From: Escherichia coli
GTDB taxonomy: Bacteria > Pseudomonadota > Gammaproteobacteria > Enterobacterales > Enterobacteriaceae
DNA: 64,000 bases
NCBI RefSeq assembly: GCF_965641715.1
Contig: NZ_OZ282453.1
Reading direction: 5' to 3' (one strand)
Numbering within the stretch: the first letter of the stretch is position 1; each line of letters starts with the position of its first letter. Made by a program: the position numbers and the translations under genes. This document shows positions 7,569-26,896 of this stretch, piece by piece. Under the pieces are notes generated by a model. It searched no databases. It was not told where the DNA came from and saw only the letters and a list, made by a program, of their open reading frames with translations.

Positions 7569-8028
<460 letters not shown>

Positions 8029-15105: not shown

Positions 15106-17130
<2,025 letters not shown>

Positions 17131-17131
17131 G

Positions 17132-17350
17132 ATGGAAAAAGAGCAGCTGATTGAAATAGCCAATACGATAATGCCGTTTGGCAAATACAAAGGGCGTCGC
17201 TTAATCGACCTGCCGGAGGAGTATCTGCTGTGGTTTGCCCGCAAAGATGAGTTCCCGGCAGGGAAGCTCGGTGAGCTAATGCAAATCACGCTGCTGATTA
17301 AAACCGAGGGGCTGACGCAACTGGTCCAGCCCCTGAAGCGTCCGCTTTAA
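17132..17350 (+). CDS. ypeB: Small conserved protein YpeB (72 aa)
   Basis: ATG at 17132, 1 nt after the ligA stop (MEKEQLIEIANTIMPFGKYKGRRLIDL...); track ORF 17039.. is an extension overlapping ligA. Confidence 0.8.
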   Translation: MEKEQLIEIANTIMPFGKYKGRRLIDLPEEYLLWFARKDEFPAGKLGELMQITLLIKTEGLTQLVQPLKRPL

Positions 17351-18345
17351 GCTTTATCGGTGCTGCTTTCCTGCTGCGCCTGTAACTGTTCGGTCTGGCG
17401 TTTGTATCGACGCGCCAGCACCGCACAGACCATCAATTGGATCTGATGGAAAATCATCAGGGGCAGCACCATCATACCGATCACCGATGTGGGGAACAGA
17501 ATGTTTGCCATCGGGATGCCATTTGCCAGACTCTTTTTCGAACCACAAAAGACGATAGTAATTTCATCTGCCTTATTGAAGCCCAGTCGGCGTGCCATAA
17601 AGACGTTAACTACAATCACGATAGCCAGAAGAACGCAGCTGACCACCACGATAAACAGCAATGATCCCCAGCCAACTTTATGCCAGATACCATTAACGAC
17701 GGCTTCGCTGAACGCTGTATAAACCACCAACAGAATGGACGTCTGGTCAGTTTTCGCAATCCATTTTTTATTGCGCGACACCCAGTCACCAATCCACGGC
17801 CGGGAAAGATGCCCCAACACAAACGGCAGCAGCAGTTGCAGCATAATTTTACCGACCTGCTCAAGGCTGCCCCCTGCACCGTGAACATTCATCACCAGAC
17901 CAACCAGCAATGGTGAAAGGAAAATCCCCAGCAGGCTGGATGCTGACGCAGAACAAACCGCCGCCGCGACGTTACCGCCCGCCATTGACGTGAAGGCGAT
18001 TGCAGACTGCACGGTAGCCGGGAGAATGCACAAGTAGAGAAAACCGGAGTAGAGCATCGGGTCGACATTTACCGGTTTCCACCAGGCAAACAGTACACCC
18101 AGAATCGGAAACAGCACGAAGGTGCTGCACATTACCCACAAATGCAGTCGCCAGTGACCACCGCCAGCAATAATCGCCTCACGCGACAACTTCGCGCCGT
18201 GCATAAAGAACAGCAGGGCAATAGCTGCGGTGGTCAGATTTTCAAAGAAGGGGACGAAATCGCCTCTGGCCGGAAAGAAAGAGGCCAGCAACACCACCGT
18301 GATCAGGGTTAAGGTGAAAGGATCGAGGATACGAAAAAGTTTCAT
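17347..18345 (-). CDS. yfeH: Inner-membrane transporter, bile acid:sodium symporter-like family
   Basis: 332-aa multi-TM ORF; stop overlaps the ypeB stop (convergent, 4-nt overlap). Confidence 0.85.
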   Translation of the reverse strand: MKLFRILDPFTLTLITVVLLASFFPARGDFVPFFENLTTAAIALLFFMHGAKLSREAIIAGGGHWRLHLWVMCSTFVLFPILGVLFAWWKPVNVDPMLYSGFLYLCILPATVQSAIAFTSMAGGNVAAAVCSASASSLLGIFLSPLLVGLVMNVHGAGGSLEQVGKIMLQLLLPFVLGHLSRPWIGDWVSRNKKWIAKTDQTSILLVVYTAFSEAVVNGIWHKVGWGSLLFIVVVSCVLLAIVIVVNVFMARRLGFNKADEITIVFCGSKKSLANGIPMANILFPTSVIGMMVLPLMIFHQIQLMVCAVLARRYKRQTEQLQAQQESSTDKA

Positions 18346-18434
18346 AAAGACTCCAGATGATCGATGGTTCTATTGTGCTTCTTCCAGTTTGAGAAATAAA
18401 ATTGATTTATTGCATCCATTCATGAAGAAAACAG

Positions 18435-19361
18435 ATGAATTATTCTTTAAAACAATTAAAGGTTTTCGTCACAGTAGCGCAGGAGAAAAGTTTTAGTCGT
18501 GCAGGAGAGCGTATCGGCCTGAGCCAGTCGGCAGTAAGTCACAGTGTGAAGGAGCTGGAAAATCATACTGGTGTTCGCCTGCTGGACAGAACCACGCGTG
18601 AAGTGGTGCTTACAGATGCAGGGCAGCAGTTGGCTTTGCGTCTTGAGCGACTGCTGGATGAACTTAACAGCACGTTGCGCGATACCGGGCGTATGGGGCA
18701 ACAACTGAGCGGAAAAGTTCGGGTCGCTGCCAGCCAGACCATTTCCGCGCATCTTATTCCGCAATGCATTGCTGAAAGCCATCGCCGCTATCCAGATATT
18801 CAGTTTGTCCTGCACGATCGTCCGCAGCAGTGGGTGATGGAAAGTATTCGCCAGGGAGATGTCGACTTTGGCATCGTCATCGATCCAGGCCCAGTGGGCG
18901 ATCTGCAATGTGAAGCGATTCTTTCCGAGCCTTTCTTTCTGCTTTGCCATCGCGATAGCGCTTTGGCCGTGGAAGATTATGTACCCTGGCAGGCATTACA
19001 GGGAGCGAAATTGGTGTTGCAGGATTACGCGTCAGGCAGCCGACCGCTGATTGACGCAGCGCTGGCGCGCAATGGTATTCAGGCGAATATTGTGCAGGAG
19101 ATTGGACATCCGGCGACGCTGTTCCCGATGGTAGCCGCAGGCATCGGCATCAGTATTCTTCCCGCACTGGCGCTACCATTGCCTGAAGGTAGCCCACTGG
19201 TGGTAAAGCGCATTACGCCGGTTGTTGAACGCCAGTTGATGCTGGTGCGCAGGAAGAACCGTTCACTTTCCACCGCCGCTGAAGCGTTATGGGACGTGGT
19301 ACGAGACCAGGGCAATGCGCTAATGGCTGGTCGGGAAGGGGATCCGTTGTATCAGATATAG
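18435..19361 (+). CDS. yfeR: LysR-family transcriptional regulator
   Basis: 308-aa ORF with N-terminal HTH ([35 protein letters not shown]) and LysR substrate-binding domain; divergent from yfeH. Confidence 0.85.
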
Positions 19362-19693
19362 ATATCGATATGAGTCGTATTTTCAACAGGATTTAGAAGG
19401 GATACATTCAGAGACAAACGCTGCTCTTTCTCCTGCGCCTTTTCTGCCTGCTGTCTCTGCAACTGCGCCAGTTGTGTTTCCAGTAGGGTGATTTGCTGTT
19501 GAATCAATTCGGCCTGTTTTTGCTTGTCTTCAGCACTGCCGCTAGTGTCTACAATCTCTTTAATTTGTTGAGTGAGTTTGATGATTTGCTGACTTATCCG
19601 CGCGATTTGTGAAGCAACATCGCTACCTTGTGATGCCCTGTTACTACTCTGTGTTTGTATGGAAGGAATTGAAGTTGAAGAGATAGTGGCCAT
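19352..19693 (-). CDS. FlxA-like small Q-rich coiled-coil protein (113 aa)
   Basis: ATG at 19693 with AGGA 7 nt upstream; Gln/Leu-rich heptad region ([35 protein letters not shown]) and C-terminal IDIYI resemble FlxA-family proteins; overlaps the yfeR 3' end by 10 nt. Confidence 0.65.
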
Positions 19694-19721
19694 TGTTCAG
19701 TCCTCGTCACTGTACGAGGTA

Positions 19722-19748
19722 ATATCGGTAGAAGAACAAGGAACTTGA
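19722..19748 (-). promoter_or_regulatory. Candidate sigma28 (FliA) promoter for the FlxA-like ORF
   Basis: Minus strand reads TCAAGTTC-N11-ACCGATAT against consensus TAAAGTTT-N11-GCCGATAA; -10 ends about 28 nt upstream of the ATG. Confidence 0.45.
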
Positions 19749-19781
19749 GAAGAAAAATCAATCTTACAAATCGCAGATAGC

Positions 19782-19808
19782 AAAAAAGCGCCTTTAGGGC
19801 GCTTTTTT
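19782..19808. terminator. Hairpin terminator 3' of lysV (bidirectional shape)
   Basis: aaaaaagcgcc-ttta-gggcgctttttt immediately downstream of the tRNA-Lys 3' end. Confidence 0.65.
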
Positions 19809-19812
19809 ACAT

Positions 19813-19888
19813 TGGTGGGTCGTGCAGGATTCGAACCTGCGACCAATTGATTAAAAGTCAACTGCTCTACCAACTGAGCTAACGACCC
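19813..19888 (-). tRNA. lysV: tRNA-Lys (anticodon UUU)
   Basis: Reverse complement reads GGGTCGTTAGCTCAGTTGGTAGAGCAGTTGACTTTTAATCAATTGGTCGCAGGTTCGAATCCTGCACGACCCACCA. Confidence 0.97.
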
Positions 19889-19892
19889 GAAG

Positions 19893-19968
19893 TGGTGGGT
19901 GATGACGGGATCGAACCGCCGACCCCCTCCTTGTAAGGGAGGTGCTCTCCCAGCTGAGCTAATCACCC
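19893..19968 (-). tRNA. valY: tRNA-Val (anticodon UAC)
   Basis: Reverse complement reads GGGTGATTAGCTCAGCTGGGAGAGCACCTCCCTTACAAGGAGGGGGTCGGCGGTTCGATCCCGTCATCACCCACCA; 4-nt spacer to lysV. Confidence 0.97.
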
Positions 19969-20014
19969 ACTTCGGTACTTCACATTGTTACAAGAAATTT
20001 AGCTGGCGAGAAAG

Positions 20015-20090
20015 TGGTGGGTGATGACGGGATCGAACCGCCGACCCCCTCCTTGTAAGGGAGGTGCTCTCCCAGCTGAGCTAATCACCC
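20015..20090 (-). tRNA. valX: tRNA-Val (anticodon UAC)
   Basis: Identical 76-nt tRNA-Val sequence, second tandem copy. Confidence 0.97.
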
Positions 20091-20134
20091 ACTTCTCAAT
20101 TTCTTGCTACACGGCGGAGACTACATAAAGTAGT

Positions 20135-20210
20135 TGGTGGGTGATGACGGGATCGAACCGCCGACCCCCTCCTTGTAAGGGAGGTGCTCTCCCAGCTGAG
20201 CTAATCACCC
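20135..20210 (-). tRNA. valU: tRNA-Val (anticodon UAC)
   Basis: Identical 76-nt tRNA-Val sequence, promoter-proximal copy. Confidence 0.97.
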
Positions 20211-20227
20211 CCGCTGTGTGGAGTCGC

Positions 20228-20255
20228 ATTATAGGGAGAGTTCAAAATGAGTCAA
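20228..20255 (-). promoter_or_regulatory. Sigma70 promoter of the valU-valX-valY-lysV tRNA operon
   Basis: Minus strand reads TTGACT-N16-TATAAT followed by GC-rich discriminator gcgactcc, about 16 nt before the mature tRNA 5' end. Confidence 0.6.
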
Positions 20256-20468
20256 CGCATTTTCTAAAGAAATTGTTCGTTCGTCGTAAATTTAAGCAAG
20301 ATGATCGCAAAACAGACCGTGTTGCGCAATTTGTCAACGAAAACAATAATGCGTAAGGTAGAAGCCCGAACTACATTGAGGAATCAGGCGGGAGTGATAG
20401 AATATCGCCCACTCAATTTTTCCAGGATTTGCCGGTTGTCGGCATCTTTCTAAACGTAAGGCCATTTC

Positions 20469-21884
20469 ATGAAAATCAAAACTCGCTTCGCGCCAAGCCC
20501 AACAGGCTATCTGCACGTTGGCGGCGCGCGTACTGCTCTTTACTCCTGGCTTTTTGCACGTAACCACGGCGGTGAGTTCGTGCTGCGTATTGAAGACACC
20601 GATCTTGAGCGTTCCACGCCGGAAGCTATCGAAGCCATTATGGATGGCATGAACTGGCTGAGCCTGGAGTGGGATGAAGGTCCGTACTACCAGACCAAAC
20701 GTTTTGATCGCTACAACGCAGTGATCGATCAGATGCTGGAGGAGGGCACTGCTTATAAATGCTATTGCTCTAAAGAGCGCCTGGAAGCGCTGCGCGAAGA
20801 ACAAATGGCGAAAGGTGAGAAGCCGCGTTATGACGGTCGCTGCCGCCACAGTCATGAGCATCACGCTGATGATGAGCCGTGTGTCGTACGTTTTGCTAAC
20901 CCGCAGGAAGGTTCTGTTGTTTTTGACGATCAGATCCGTGGTCCGATCGAGTTCAGCAACCAGGAGCTGGATGATCTGATTATCCGCCGTACCGATGGTT
21001 CCCCAACCTATAACTTCTGTGTGGTTGTCGATGACTGGGATATGGAAATCACCCACGTTATCCGTGGCGAAGACCATATCAACAACACGCCACGCCAGAT
21101 CAACATTCTTAAAGCCCTGAAAGCGCCGGTACCGGTTTACGCGCACGTTTCTATGATCAACGGCGATGACGGCAAAAAACTGTCCAAACGTCACGGGGCA
21201 GTCAGCGTAATGCAGTATCGTGATGACGGTTATTTGCCAGAAGCACTGCTGAACTATCTGGTGCGTCTGGGCTGGTCCCACGGCGATCAGGAAATCTTCA
21301 CTCGTGAAGAGATGATCAAATACTTCACTTTGAATGCCGTCAGCAAATCTGCCAGTGCGTTCAACACCGACAAGCTGCTGTGGCTGAACCATCACTACAT
21401 TAATGCGCTGCCGCCGGAGTATGTTGCTACTCACTTACAGTGGCACATTGAGCAGGAAAATATCGATACCCGTAACGGCCCGCAGCTGGCTGATCTGGTG
21501 AAACTGCTGGGCGAACGCTGCAAGACGCTGAAAGAGATGGCACAGAGCTGCCGTTATTTCTACGAAGATTTTGCTGAGTTCGATGCCGACGCCGCGAAAA
21601 AACATCTGCGTCCGGTAGCGCGTCAGCCGCTGGAAGTGGTTCGTGACAAACTGGCCGCGATTACTGACTGGACCGCTGAAAACGTTCATCACGCTATTCA
21701 GGCGACGGCGGATGAGCTGGAAGTGGGTATGGGTAAAGTTGGTATGCCGCTGCGTGTCGCCGTAACCGGTGCGGGGCAGTCTCCGGCACTGGATGTTACC
21801 GTTCACGCAATCGGTAAGACACGTAGCATTGAGCGTATCAACAAAGCGCTGGCCTTTATTGCTGAACGCGAAAACCAGCAGTAA
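20469..21884 (+). CDS. gltX: Glutamyl-tRNA synthetase
   Basis: 471-aa [33 protein letters not shown]... with HIGH-type and KMSKS-type (KLSKR) motifs. Confidence 0.97.
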
Positions 21885-21903
21885 TTAGCGTGTAAAAAGA
21901 TAA

Positions 21904-21933
21904 ACGGCAGGAGATAATATCCTGCCGTTTTTT
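21904..21933 (+). terminator. Rho-independent terminator downstream of gltX
   Basis: Hairpin acggcagg-agataatat-cctgccgt followed by tttttt. Confidence 0.65.
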
Positions 21934-21935
21934 AT

Positions 21936-22328
21936 TTATGCTGATTCGTCAATATCGAGACGGGCGAGGAAATTGCGAATTCCTTCACGTGACAAAAATT
22001 GCGCGACTTTTTCCTGCTCAATGTCTGTCATATTATCTATCGCGTTGATGATTTGTCGATACGCCGGGGCGCGTGCTCCAGGAGCGTATTCAGCAATTCT
22101 CTCTTCAGCTTCCATCAACATTGGTGTGTTATGGAAGGCTGGCGTGTTCTGAATAAACTCGCAAACTTGCGTATCGACCAGAATAAGTCTGGCACGACCG
22201 CCTTTCACGCCGGGAAATTTTTCCGTTTTCCAGCCTTTTTCTCTGATCCAACGGTTAACAGTTTGTTTAGCCACACCGAGGCATTCAGCCAGTTCTTCGG
22301 TGGTCATTTTATTGCGTAATCTTTTCAT
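21936..22328 (-). CDS. yfeD: Small putative DNA-binding protein, YfeD-like (130 aa)
   Basis: N-terminal HTH-like segment (LAECLGVAKQTVNRWIREKGWKT); paralogous to the adjacent yfeC. Confidence 0.8.
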   Translation of the reverse strand: MKRLRNKMTTEELAECLGVAKQTVNRWIREKGWKTEKFPGVKGGRARLILVDTQVCEFIQNTPAFHNTPMLMEAEERIAEYAPGARAPAYRQIINAIDNMTDIEQEKVAQFLSREGIRNFLARLDIDESA

Positions 22329-22329
22329 A

Positions 22330-22689
22330 TTATTTGCTATCGCGAATCCCTAAGCGTTGTAACAATCCGATAATCCCTTCCCGCAGAAGCAAGGATGTAA
22401 ACTGTTTTTGTTCAACTGGCGTCATCTCTTTCGCCAGTGTCACCAGCAATACTTCAAGCGGCGCATCACCAGAAAGGGCAGGCGCTTCTCCCTGACCTTC
22501 TGGACGTTCAGCATTACGAATATATTCACGAACCTGTTCATTGACGTGAACCAGTCGGGCTTTGCCACCCTGGACGCCTGGTTTTGGTGACGTCGTCCAG
22601 CCTTCCTTGCGTACCCATTTATTAATGGTCTGGCGGCTATAGCCGGTCAGTCTGGCAAGTTCATCTGGCGTCATCCTCTCCTTGAACAT
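22330..22689 (-). CDS. yfeC: Small putative DNA-binding protein, YfeC-like (119 aa)
   Basis: N-terminal HTH-like segment (LARLTGYSRQTINKWVRKEGWTT); tandem paralogue of yfeD, separated by 1 nt. Confidence 0.8.
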   Translation of the reverse strand: MFKERMTPDELARLTGYSRQTINKWVRKEGWTTSPKPGVQGGKARLVHVNEQVREYIRNAERPEGQGEAPALSGDAPLEVLLVTLAKEMTPVEQKQFTSLLLREGIIGLLQRLGIRDSK

Positions 22690-22848
22690 AACAATTCCCT
22701 GAATGTATGTGGGTCTATTAGTAGTTCATTTTATAGCACCACTTTACAGGAAACCGTGACATGAATAACTACTGAATGCGAGCGGTTTTCCAAAATTGTT
22801 CATTTGCCTGATTTTTCAGCGATTGAAACTACACGCTGCAATTTGCCG

Positions 22849-22877
22849 TTGACACATTCGGGCGGAATTCATATGAT
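22849..22877 (+). promoter_or_regulatory. Sigma70 promoter of the tRNA-Ala pair
   Basis: TTGACA-N17-TATGAT followed by GC-rich discriminator gccgccc, about 32 nt upstream of the first tRNA-Ala. Confidence 0.6.
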
Positions 22878-22909
22878 GCCGCCCGTCAACTCGACAAGCT
22901 TTACGTGAC

Positions 22910-22985
<76 letters not shown>

Positions 22986-23024
22986 AATTTTGCACCCAGC
23001 AAATTTGGTACGTAAACGCATCGT

Positions 23025-23100
<76 letters not shown>

Positions 23101-23107
23101 AATTTCC

Positions 23108-23136
23108 AACCCTCGCTGCAAAGCGGGGGTTTTTTG
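23108..23136 (+). terminator. Rho-independent terminator after the tRNA-Ala pair
   Basis: Hairpin ccctcgc-tgcaaa-gcggggg followed by tttttt. Confidence 0.6.
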
Positions 23137-23307
23137 TCTCTGCTTTTTGCCGCTTTTGTAATACAGTCTACGTCCGGGTTAGCGCCGCCTGGTGAAAGCA
23201 TCATTGGATGAAAAATCGGCAACAGGCTGGCCCCTGTTTGCTTCGCGATGCGAATAAACTTATTATTTGTGTGCCTGAAAACCCCGATCAGTGAGAGTAG
23301 TGTACTC

Positions 23308-25497
23308 ATGTTTGTGGAGCATAACCTGATAAAAAATATCAAGATATTCACACTAGCGTTTACGCTCACCGTGGTACTTATTCAGCTATCCCGTTTTATT
23401 TCGCCACTTGCCATTATCCATTCCAGTTATATCTTTCTGGCGTGGATGCCACTGTGCGTAATGCTGTCAATCTTGTTTATCTTTGGCTGGCGCGGTGTCG
23501 TTCCCGTTTTATGCGGGATGTTTTGCACCAATCTGTGGAACTTTCATCTCTCTTTTTTACAGACTGCGGTCATGCTCGGCAGCCAGACATTTGTCGTGTT
23601 GTGTGCCTGCGCAATATTACGCTGGCAGCTGGGGACGCGTTGGCGTTATGGATTGACCAGCCGATATGTCTGGCAACGTCTGTTCTGGCTTGGTTTGGTG
23701 ACGCCGATCGGCATCAAATGCAGCATGTATCTTGTGGGGAGCTTCTTTGATTTCCCGCTAAAGATATCCACCTTTTTCGGCGATGCGGATGCCATTTTCA
23801 CGGTCGTGGATTTACTAAGCCTTTTCACCGCTGTTCTGATTTACAACATGCTTTTCTACTATCTCACTCGCATGATTGTAAGTCCCCACTTTGCGCAGAT
23901 ATTGTGGCGCAGGGATATCGCTCCGTCATTGGGCAAAGAGAAACGCGCATTTACCTTAAGCTGGCTGGCAGCGTTAAGCGTGCTGCTACTTCTGCTGTGC
24001 ACACCTTATGAAAACGACTTTATTGCCGGTTACCTGGTACCCGTTTTCTTCATCATCTTTACCCTCGGGGTCGGTAAGCTTCGCTATCCGTTTTTAAATC
24101 TCACCTGGGCTGTTTCAACGCTTTGCCTGCTGAATTACAACCAGAACTTTTTGCAAGGGGTGGAAACCGAATATTCGCTGGCATTTATTCTCGCGGTGCT
24201 GATTTCCTTTAGCGTTTGCCTGCTCTATATGGTGCGCATTTATCATCGCAGTGAATGGCTTAATCGCCGCTGGCATTTGCAGGCGCTGACCGATCCGTTA
24301 ACGCTCCTGCCCAACTTTCGTGCGTTGGAACAAGCGCCGGAGCAAGAGGCGGGCAAGAGTTTTTGCTGCCTGCGCATTGATAATCTTGAGTTTATGAGTC
24401 GTCATTACGGGTTGATGATGCGCGTTCACTGTATCCGATCAATTTACCGTACGCTGCTGCCATTGATGCAGGAAAACGAAAAGTTGTATCAATTGCCGGG
24501 TAGTGAACTGCTGTTAGTGCTGAGCGGGCCGGAAACGGAAGGGCGACTCCAGCATATGGTTAACATCCTGAATAGTCGGCAAATTCACTGGAACAATACC
24601 GGGCTGGATATGGGCTATGGTGCTGCCTGGGGGCGTTTTGATGGAAATCAGGAAACCTTGCAACCCTTGTTGGGGCAGTTAAGCTGGCTGGCGGAGCAAT
24701 CCTGCGCACATCATCATGTGCTGGCGCTGGATAGCAGAGAGGAGATGGTTTCCGGGCAGACCACTAAACAGGTGCTATTGCTGAATACCATTCGCACGGC
24801 GTTAGATCAGGGTGATTTGCTGCTCTACGCCCAGCCAATTCGCAACAAAGAGGGTGAAGGTTATGATGAGATCCTCGCGCGACTGAAATATGACGGCGGC
24901 ATTATGACCCCGGATAAGTTTCTGCCCCTTATTGCTCAGTTTAACCTTAGCGCGCGTTTTGATTTGCAAGTGCTGGAATCCTTGTTGAAGTGGCTGGCAA
25001 CACACCCTTGCGACAAAAAAGGCCCGCGCTTTTCAGTTAATTTAATGCCGCTCACGCTGCTGCAAAAGAATATTGCCGGGCGGATTATTCGTCTATTTAA
25101 GCGTTATCACATCTCCCCGCAGGCGGTCATTCTTGAGATCACCGAGGAGCAGGCGTTTTCTAACGCAGAAAGCAGCATGTACAACATCGAGCAGCTGCAT
25201 AAGTTTGGTTTCCGGATTGCGATTGATGACTTTGGCACCGGATATGCCAACTACGAACGGTTAAAGCGTTTGCAGGCTGATATCATCAAAATTGATGGCG
25301 TCTTTGTGAAAGATATCGTCACGAATACGCTGGATGCGATGATTGTGAGATCAATTACCGATCTGGCGAAAGCGAAGTCATTGAGTGTGGTTGCGGAGTT
25401 TGTTGAGACGCAACAGCAGCAGGCGCTATTGCATAAGCTCGGAGTGCAATATCTGCAAGGGTATTTGATTGGACGCCCGCAGCCATTAGTTGATTAA
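23308..25497 (+). CDS. pdeA: c-di-GMP phosphodiesterase-type protein: N-terminal multi-TM sensor domain, degenerate GGDEF, EAL domain (729 aa)
   Basis: ATG at 23308 gives MFVEHNLIKNIKIFTLAFT...; about 9 predicted TM segments; GGDEF position reads GSELL; EAL-domain motifs QPI...EIL and DDFGTGYANY. Track ORF 23248.. is an extension. Confidence 0.85.
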   Translation: MFVEHNLIKNIKIFTLAFTLTVVLIQLSRFISPLAIIHSSYIFLAWMPLCVMLSILFIFGWRGVVPVLCGMFCTNLWNFHLSFLQTAVMLGSQTFVVLCACAILRWQLGTRWRYGLTSRYVWQRLFWLGLVTPIGIKCSMYLVGSFFDFPLKISTFFGDADAIFTVVDLLSLFTAVLIYNMLFYYLTRMIVSPHFAQILWRRDIAPSLGKEKRAFTLSWLAALSVLLLLLCTPYENDFIAGYLVPVFFIIFTLGVGKLRYPFLNLTWAVSTLCLLNYNQNFLQGVETEYSLAFILAVLISFSVCLLYMVRIYHRSEWLNRRWHLQALTDPLTLLPNFRALEQAPEQEAGKSFCCLRIDNLEFMSRHYGLMMRVHCIRSIYRTLLPLMQENEKLYQLPGSELLLVLSGPETEGRLQHMVNILNSRQIHWNNTGLDMGYGAAWGRFDGNQETLQPLLGQLSWLAEQSCAHHHVLALDSREEMVSGQTTKQVLLLNTIRTALDQGDLLLYAQPIRNKEGEGYDEILARLKYDGGIMTPDKFLPLIAQFNLSARFDLQVLESLLKWLATHPCDKKGPRFSVNLMPLTLLQKNIAGRIIRLFKRYHISPQAVILEITEEQAFSNAESSMYNIEQLHKFGFRIAIDDFGTGYANYERLKRLQADIIKIDGVFVKDIVTNTLDAMIVRSITDLAKAKSLSVVAEFVETQQQQALLHKLGVQYLQGYLIGRPQPLVD

Positions 25498-25525
25498 CAG
25501 GCGTAAAAAAGCCGGGGAATTATCC

Positions 25526-26864
25526 CATAAGCGCTAACTTAAGGGTTGTGGTATTACGCCTGATATGATTTAACGTGCCGATGAATTACTCTCACGATAA
25601 CTGGTCAGCAATTCTGGCCCATATTGGTAAGCCCGAAGAACTGGATACTTCGGCACGTAATGCCGGGGCTCTAACCCGCCGCCGCGAAATTCGTGATGCT
25701 GCAACTCTGCTACGTCTGGGGCTGGCTTACGGCCCCGGGGGGATGTCATTACGTGAAGTCACTGCATGGGCTCAGCTCCATGACGTTGCAACATTATCTG
25801 ACGTGGCTCTCCTGAAGCGGCTGCGGAATGCCGCCGACTGGTTTGGCATACTTGCCGCACAAACACTTGCTGTACGCGCCGCAGTTACGGGTTGTACAAG
25901 CGGAAAGAGATTGCGTCTTGTCGATGGAACAGCAATCAGTGCGCCCGGGGGCGGCAGCGCTGAATGGCGACTACATATGGGATATGATCCTCATACCTGT
26001 CAGTTCACTGATTTTGAGCTAACCGACAGCAGAGACGCTGAACGGCTGGACCGATTTGCGCAAACGGCAGACGAGATACGCATTGCTGACCGGGGATTCG
26101 GTTCGCGTCCCGAATGTATCCGCTCACTTGCTTTTGGAGAAGCTGATTATATCGTCCGGGTTCACTGGCGAGGATTGCGCTGGTTAACTGCAGAAGGAAT
26201 GCGCTTTGACATGATGGGTTTTCTGCGCGGGCTGGATTGCGGTAAGAACGGTGAAACCACTGTAATGATAGGCAATTCAGGTAATAAAAAAGCCGGAGCT
26301 CCCTTTCCGGCACGTCTCATTGCCGTATCACTTCCTCCCGAAAAAGCATTAATCAGTAAAACCCGACTGCTCAGCGAGAATCGTCGAAAAGGACGAGTAG
26401 TTCAGGCGGAAACGCTGGAAGCAGCGGGCCATGTGCTATTGCTAACATCATTACCGGAAGATGAATATTCAGCAGAGCAAGTGGCTGATTGTTACCGTCT
26501 GCGATGGCAAATTGAACTGGCTTTTAAGCGGCTCAAAAGTTTGCTGCACCTGGATGCTTTGCGTGCAAAGGAACCTGAACTCGCGAAAGCGTGGATATTT
26601 GCTAATCTACTCGCCGCATTTTTAATTGACGACATAATCCAGCCATCGCTGGATTTCCCCCCCAGAAGTGCCGGATCCGAAAAGAAGAACTAACTCGTTG
26701 TGGAGAATAACAAAAATGGTCATCTGGAGCTTACAGGTGGCCATTCGTGGGACAGTATCCCTGACAGCCTACAAAACGCAATTGAAGAACGCGAGGCATC
26801 GTCTTAACGAGGCACCGAGGCGTCGCATTCTTCAGATGGTTCAACCCTTAAGTTAGCGCTTATG
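25526..26864 (+). mobile_element. IS186 insertion sequence (IS4 family), about 1.34 kb
   Basis: Terminal inverted repeats cataagcgctaacttaagggttg (left) and caacccttaagttagcgcttatg (right); flanked by a duplicated ggaattatcc-type target sequence; carries one transposase ORF. Confidence 0.93.
25575..26693 (+). CDS. insL: IS186 transposase (372 aa as read)
   Basis: ORF MNYSHDNWSAILAHIGKPEELDTSARNAGALTRR... inside the IS186 inverted repeats; IS4-family DDE transposase. Confidence 0.93.
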   Translation: MPMNYSHDNWSAILAHIGKPEELDTSARNAGALTRRREIRDAATLLRLGLAYGPGGMSLREVTAWAQLHDVATLSDVALLKRLRNAADWFGILAAQTLAVRAAVTGCTSGKRLRLVDGTAISAPGGGSAEWRLHMGYDPHTCQFTDFELTDSRDAERLDRFAQTADEIRIADRGFGSRPECIRSLAFGEADYIVRVHWRGLRWLTAEGMRFDMMGFLRGLDCGKNGETTVMIGNSGNKKAGAPFPARLIAVSLPPEKALISKTRLLSENRRKGRVVQAETLEAAGHVLLLTSLPEDEYSAEQVADCYRLRWQIELAFKRLKSLLHLDALRAKEPELAKAWIFANLLAAFLIDDIIQPSLDFPPRSAGSEKKN

Positions 26865-26896
26865 GGAATTATCCCCGGCTTTTTTATGTATGGTGC

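Follow-up and report, generated by a model that had tools for sequence, protein, structure and literature searches.

An accessory slot abutting the valU-valX-valY-lysV tRNA operon of Escherichia coli holds either a flxA-like gene or the xap genes

The stretch of Escherichia coli DNA analysed here, 64,000 nucleotides in length and hereafter called the window, contains a minus-strand tRNA operon in which three genes for tRNA-Val(UAC) are followed by one for tRNA-Lys(UUU). The three tRNA-Val genes are identical to one another, and ARAGORN, Rfam and this identity bear out the tandem arrangement pointed out in a preliminary description of the sequence, whose interval 19782-20255 coincides exactly with the operon from terminator through promoter. 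The region is bordered by ligA, yfeH and yfeR on the left and by gltX on the right. A short variable cassette with a FlxA-like gene lies between yfeR and the operon, and the features of the region are the following:

18435..19361, plus strand: yfeR, gene of a LysR-family regulator; left conserved flank, kept in K-12 and in other genera
19352..19693, minus strand: FlxA-like gene, 113 aa, coiled-coil, Gln-rich (open reading frame and Pfam PF14282)
19363..19766, no strand assigned: variable cassette, FlxA-like allele; 404 bp without a K-12 counterpart
19702..19719, minus strand: putative small 5'-UTR hairpin CCTCGT-ACAGTG-ACGAGG, read from the sequence, which overlaps the GAGG ribosome-binding site
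19722..19748, minus strand: predicted FliA (sigma-28) promoter of the FlxA-like gene, TCAAGTTC-N11-ACCGATAT (relaxed FliA pattern)
19767..19781, minus strand: last shared bases past the terminator, GCTATCTGCGATTTG on the minus strand (comparison with K-12)
19782..19808, no strand assigned: two-way intrinsic terminator hairpin of the tRNA operon, AAAAAAGCGCC-TTTAG-GGCGCTTTTTT, found in both alleles
19813-19830, minus strand: last 18 nt of lysV, a piece duplicated in RtT-bearing strains and single here
19813..19888, minus strand: lysV, tRNA-Lys(UUU) (ARAGORN and Rfam)
19893..19968, minus strand: valY, tRNA-Val(UAC) (ARAGORN and Rfam)
20015..20090, minus strand: valX, tRNA-Val(UAC) (ARAGORN and Rfam)
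20135..20210, minus strand: valU, tRNA-Val(UAC) (ARAGORN and Rfam)
20228..20255, minus strand: promoter-like site of the valU-valX-valY-lysV operon, TTGACT-16-TATAAT, 11 of 12 sigma-70 consensus positions
20469..21884, plus strand: gltX, right conserved flank beyond the tRNA operon

The terminator at 19782-19808 (-20.2 kcal/mol, z = -5.0) is built from an 11-nt inverted repeat with 100% complementarity and a 5-nt loop, with A6 on one side and T6 on the other, as corresponds to an intrinsic terminator. A simple pattern scan missed this hairpin, which was found by folding and by an inverted-repeat search, and it is common to the window, K-12 and other genera. The operon itself shows some plasticity, with 1 to 3 identical copies of tRNA-Val(UAC) among relatives and some E. 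coli, a variation presumably produced by recombination between the identical copies.

When the full 64-kb window was compared by megablast with about 74 kb of annotated K-12 sequence, the two were found to be colinear and only positions 19363-19766 were left unmatched, in agreement with the earlier remark that the content 3' of lysV differs from that of K-12. In K-12 the place is taken by yfeN-xapA-xapB-DUF1427-xapR, of about 4.4 kb, with an additional 156-bp RtT repeat unit adjoining lysV. A blastn-short search of 19363-19766 against the K-12 cassette returned chance 9-13-mers only, with no remnant of one cassette inside the other. Because each allele has its own unique DNA, the difference between the window and K-12 is a two-state replacement and not a simple insertion or deletion; the junction is thus variable, as had been supposed, and its explanation by a simple deletion fails for this pair. 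The GC content of the flxA-like cassette is 42.8%, compared with 52-54% in the flanking genes, and low GC is often taken as a sign of foreign origin.

Other differences from K-12 were observed at a distance from the slot. An IS421 element of the IS4 family (25504-26886; transposase open reading frame 25575-26693, NF033592, E = 1e-38) occupies the same pdeA-nupC site as in K-12 in the opposite orientation. At 7571|7572 the window is without some 958 bp carrying yfeS, a WGR-domain gene that K-12 has between cysM and yfeK, and a 143-bp stretch found only in K-12 maps near window position 2597.

The left breakpoint (19362|19363) falls 1 nt past the yfeR stop codon, the right one (19766|19767) falls 46 nt past the CCA end of lysV, beyond the terminator and 15 more shared bases, and neither changes position among E. 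coli, other Escherichia and Pseudocitrobacter. A CAGATA microhomology noticed by eye near both breakpoints is too short to carry meaning and was absent from the output of the repeat search.

The 3' ends of tRNA genes are classic attachment sites, and this general experience was behind the initial proposal that the FlxA-like gene, or the xap genes in K-12, may have arrived through a tRNA-associated event. In its explicit form, one of the cassettes would be, or would have been, a genomic island put into the 3' end of lysV by a site-specific recombinase, the integrase having later been lost. In this regard, the last 18 nt of lysV and the terminator are indeed found a second time downstream of lysV in K-12-type strains. 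However, the sequence shared with K-12 runs past the CCA end through the whole terminator, so that the boundary of the cassette does not lie in the 3' part of the tRNA gene. A search tolerating up to 3 mismatches located the 18-mer ATCCTGCACGACCCACCA, the end of lysV, at a single site of the window; none of the 12-mers taken from the last 45 nt of lysV recurs there, and a repeat search of 19300-19900 gave no direct repeat bracketing the cassette. The att-like copy of the lysV end, for which a search of the yfeR flank had been advised, is therefore absent. No integrase is found in the 64 kb either, as already stated in the preliminary description: outside 19363-19766 and its FlxA-like open reading frame, the sequence is colinear with annotated core genes of K-12, and IS421 is the sole mobile element.

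The repeat of K-12 accounts for the duplicated tRNA end. Its 156-bp unit (locus L001 12373-12528) is composed of a body of about 94 nt, then the 18-nt end of lysV and finally a copy of the terminator, lies between lysV and xapR, and its portion at L001 12373-12498 scores 47.3 bits against the threshold of 45 for Rfam family RF00391. With a period of 156, the unit at lysV is present in 0, 1 or 2 copies among Escherichia, and a related species of the genus (L010 4810-5180) shows 2.4 tandem copies. The window is in the zero-copy state, since no match to the RtT covariance model appears in 17000-24000 even at E <= 1. Among E. coli genomes the unit accompanies the flxA-like cassette in 380 of 1316 cases and the xap cassette in 1911 of 4099, and is thus uncoupled from which cassette is present. 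The intuition that a repeat of the tRNA end would turn up was consequently right for K-12 and many other strains, where the 18-nt copy exists, and wrong in its implication, as the copy encloses only the RtT unit; lying between lysV and xapR, it leaves the xap genes outside the bracketed segment. Moreover, the lysV repeat is found with and without either cassette, and the flxA-like gene is syntenic in at least seven genera. Altogether, integration into the tRNA is largely refuted for both cassettes and appears to us scarcely credible, and adjacency to a tRNA gene is by itself no evidence of tRNA-targeted integration. As a separate observation, in an E. hormaechei genome (L025 11918-16925) yfeD, next to yfeC and just beyond gltX, is interrupted by a resolvase gene together with P2-like genes for tail and baseplate, so the wider neighbourhood can host prophage insertions in relatives.

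The only gene of the cassette belongs to the FlxA family (PF14282), with a score of 52.2 bits over residues 15-92, compared with a gathering cut-off of 26.3, and E = 7e-14; RefSeq labels the same open reading frame as 'FlxA-like family protein'. The gene ends 10 nt inside the 3' end of yfeR, an overlap kept in most orthologues. Upstream of it, elements resembling TAAAGTTT-N11-GCCGATAA, with the spacing proper of FliA-type promoters, are found, and the relaxed FliA pattern has a single match in the 64-kb window compared with 0.04 expected by chance. The -10 element of E. coli, ACCGATAT, is two positions off the consensus. Comparison of ten orthologue upstream regions from 7 genera revealed that a TCAAG-type -35 element is kept in most of them and that the sequence GCCGATA is kept in all nine besides E. 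coli, which has ACCGATA, at 22-35 nt before the ATG, while spacers and surroundings cannot be aligned. The site also resembles mapped FliA sites such as those of flgKL, ycgR and Qin flxA. Given this unique match, the conserved elements, the likeness to mapped sites and the relation with Qin FlxA, the FlxA-like gene is predicted to depend on FliA. The stem of the putative 5'-UTR hairpin, as read from the sequence, is likewise kept in two Pseudocitrobacter loci (L003 and L005) and in another E. coli (L011).

The flxA gene of K-12 resides in the cryptic prophage Qin, which raises the alternative that the FlxA-like gene of the window is a prophage remnant. Both proteins share the Pfam family and 43% identity over 74 aa (K-12 b1566), and the low GC of the cassette would agree with such an origin. 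Nevertheless, tblastn against 50,697 phage records gave no match at E <= 1e-3, there are no phage genes nearby, and the gene keeps a syntenic position with a divergence that follows the host across genera, all of which makes a prophage origin very improbable. The cassette is low in GC although it is syntenic and apparently an old occupant of the place.

The history of the slot was approached through its relatives. An exhaustive phmmer search of 1.84 billion representative proteins with the FlxA-like protein gave 80 clusters of relatives, compared with only 8 matches in a word-indexed protein search, and an exact-peptide scan of genome contigs for YfeR recovered 8 loci, from close relatives only, in a sample that leaves Salmonella, E. 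albertii and E. fergusonii outside. The nearest relatives, orthologues with 45-58% identity, share the gltX-tRNA-flxA-like-yfeR-yfeH-ypeB-ligA context; they come from Enterobacter roggenkampii, from Yokenella regensburgei, from Cedecea colo, where yfeR and yfeH are missing, and from a contig whose FlxA-like protein falls in one cluster with that of 'Enterobacteriaceae bacterium C34A'. Similar proteins of 113-114 aa occupy the same position in E. hormaechei and Scandinavium goeteborgense. Three arrangements in which xap genes take part were found as well:

Citrobacter-like 2.7-Mb contig (L020): yfeR, flxA-like, xapA, xapB, xapR, RtT, lysV
C. freundii: yfeR-xapABR, with a yfeR-xapA spacer that aligns with the flxA-like-to-xapA spacer of L020
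K-12 type: yfeN in place of flxA-like

Because of the aligned spacer, the arrangement of C. freundii appears to be a deletion derivative from which flxA-like was lost. The syntenic orthologues across genera, together with the composite arrangement of L020, suggest that flxA-like is most likely the old occupant of the slot, and that the xap genes would be a later arrival acquired horizontally. In this line, the xapABR cluster for xanthosine catabolism has been reported to be repeatedly co-transferred in a horizontal manner (Price, Dehal & Arkin 2008, PMC2395238). The comparison across genomes that had been advised for deciding on the ancestral state thus confirmed a variable junction and points to flxA-like as the older state. 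It should be added that re-import, in place of retention, could also account for the E. coli allele, since the flxA-like alleles of E. coli and Pseudocitrobacter share 81-88% amino acid identity.

Among 5426 complete E. coli genomes, the flxA-like cassette is present in 1316 and yfeN-xapA-xapB-xapR in 4099, and both were matched in one genome only, HH97. The latter was put aside as a composite allele, as its scrambled fragments and long poly-A runs are probably assembly noise. The yfeR-lysV interval of this genome (L027 5690-6906) spans 1.2 kb in which degenerate pieces of flxA-like and xapB are jumbled, and could alternatively represent a decayed composite allele.

These data bear on a second alternative, by which the lineage of the window would descend from an ancestor carrying flxA-like and xapABR together, as in L020, and would have lost xap once, the flxA-like-only state being then derived. 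The existence of the composite in L020 makes the scheme conceivable, the locus seems prone to deletions as judged from the apparent loss of flxA-like in C. freundii, and REP-like palindromes were seen by eye to flank xapR. Against it, no clean composite exists among the E. coli genomes, with the noisy HH97 as the only double match, and the E. coli xap allele has yfeN where flxA-like would be, so it cannot give rise to the flxA-like allele by deletion. Moreover, terminator and promoter are separated in the window by about the same distance as in Enterobacter, Yokenella and Scandinavium, all of them without xap, and blastn-short against the K-12 cassette detected no xap or REP scar at 19749-19766. 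A single deletion is consequently an unlikely origin for the state of the window.

The distribution of both states within the species is also informative. BL21 and other B strains, as well as O157:H7, have flxA-like and K-12 has xap, K-12 and BL21 being both members of phylogroup A. In a published pan-genome table, 51% of phylogroup A and 45% of B1 have xapB. Since K-12 and BL21 differ and about half of A and B1 have xapB, the state of the slot varies within phylogroups, which fits recombination. The xap cassette is in turn bimodal when compared with K-12, with an identity of at least 99% in 2434 genomes, of 90-95% in 1642 and almost none in between, a divergence between the two types that exceeds what we would expect within E. 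coli. In a related Escherichia (L008), xapABR has only 72-78% DNA identity and stands near the Citrobacter type.

Pseudocitrobacter shows the two alleles as well: flxA-like occupies the slot in P. faecalis and in a MAG, and yfeN-xapABR occupies that of P. vendiensis. Between E. coli and this genus yfeR and the cassettes share 85-94% DNA identity. The yfeR of other genera reaches only 72-75%, while the identity of ligA to E. coli is about 76-83% in all the genera compared. The profile against P. faecalis follows the same tendency, with 84-90% over yfeR and flxA-like and 75-82% in yfeH and ligA, a moderate rise. These identities are suggestive of a movement of the yfeR-cassette segment between Escherichia and Pseudocitrobacter. 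A literature search found no account of this flxA-like/xap dimorphism, and neither the fact that absence of xap corresponds to flxA-like at fixed breakpoints nor the recurrence of both states in Pseudocitrobacter was found in the papers searched.

Altogether, we consider it likely that the interval between yfeR and the terminator is a replaceable slot, originally held by flxA-like and later by xap, whose alleles are exchanged by homologous recombination in the flanks and for which the tRNA operon is only a neighbour. The flxA-like gene, with its own FliA-type promoter, would have been resident just past the tRNA terminator with its end inside the 3' end of yfeR. The xap genes would have arrived between the flxA-like promoter and the terminator, flxA-like being afterwards lost or displaced in some lineages, and the xanthosine module yfeN-xapA-xapB-xapR would have come to replace it in about three quarters of E. 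coli, K-12 among them. Transfer of alleles between strains would proceed by homologous recombination in the conserved flanks, formed by yfeR, yfeH and ligA to the left and by the tRNA operon and gltX to the right, and apparently the same process also operates between Escherichia and Pseudocitrobacter. The tRNA genes would thus be neighbours of the slot and not a target of integration. A more ambitious version would see here a long-lived, cross-genus either/or polymorphism between a FlxA-like protein of the FliA regulon and an outer-membrane channel with xanthosine catabolism, both alleles having passed between Escherichia and Pseudocitrobacter and being maintained at intermediate frequency through some balancing or niche-dependent selection, with RtT, which restores the 3' end of its cognate tRNA at lysV as well as at tyrT, as the footprint of a small element that targets tRNA 3' ends; such a view is speculative and we hold it to be improbable.

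The locus is, in short, an ordinary replacement-type accessory slot abutting a tRNA operon, and the value of its description is mostly housekeeping. It explains the absence of xapABR and yfeN from B strains, O157:H7 and about one quarter of E. coli, documents a lysV counterpart of the tyrT-type RtT repeat that varies in copy number and carries the end of its cognate tRNA, and assigns a probable place in the FliA regulon to a widespread gene of the FlxA family. The published FliA ChIP and RNA-seq maps were made in K-12, which lacks the FlxA-like gene of the slot, and K-12-based maps of the flagellar regulon are unable to detect it.

Several known systems offer points of comparison. The FlxA of Qin has the same PF14282 domain and a similar length (110 aa versus 113 aa here), and both genes have a sigma-28 type promoter about 25-30 nt upstream of the ATG. 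Qin flxA is described as FliA-dependent and dispensable for motility by Ide & Kutsukake (1997), at least in the form in which that work is cited in PMC4183435. In contrast to this prophage gene, the FlxA-like gene of the window is chromosomal and syntenic across the Enterobacteriaceae. The xapABR cluster is the alternative occupant of the slot, variable within phylogroups, and the window is devoid of all of it. With tRNA-linked genomic islands the window shares a variable segment directly 3' of a tRNA gene; such islands have an integrase and att repeats of the tRNA 3' end, whereas the slot has neither and its boundary falls outside the tRNA. Finally, the RtT repeats of tyrT (RF00391; rttR) are tandem units of 178 bp, each closed by 19 nt from the 3' end of tRNA-Tyr, and the window has zero RtT units. 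The K-12 lysV body is homologous to the tyrT-locus body (L033), with 70-72% identity over 97 nt, and at both loci the unit consists of the body followed by the cognate tRNA 3' end, to which the lysV unit adds a copy of the terminator. The RtT body thus occurs with the end of a different cognate tRNA at each locus, 18 nt of lysV versus 19 nt of tRNA-Tyr, and either tandem duplication or an element that targets tRNA ends may have given rise to the repeat.
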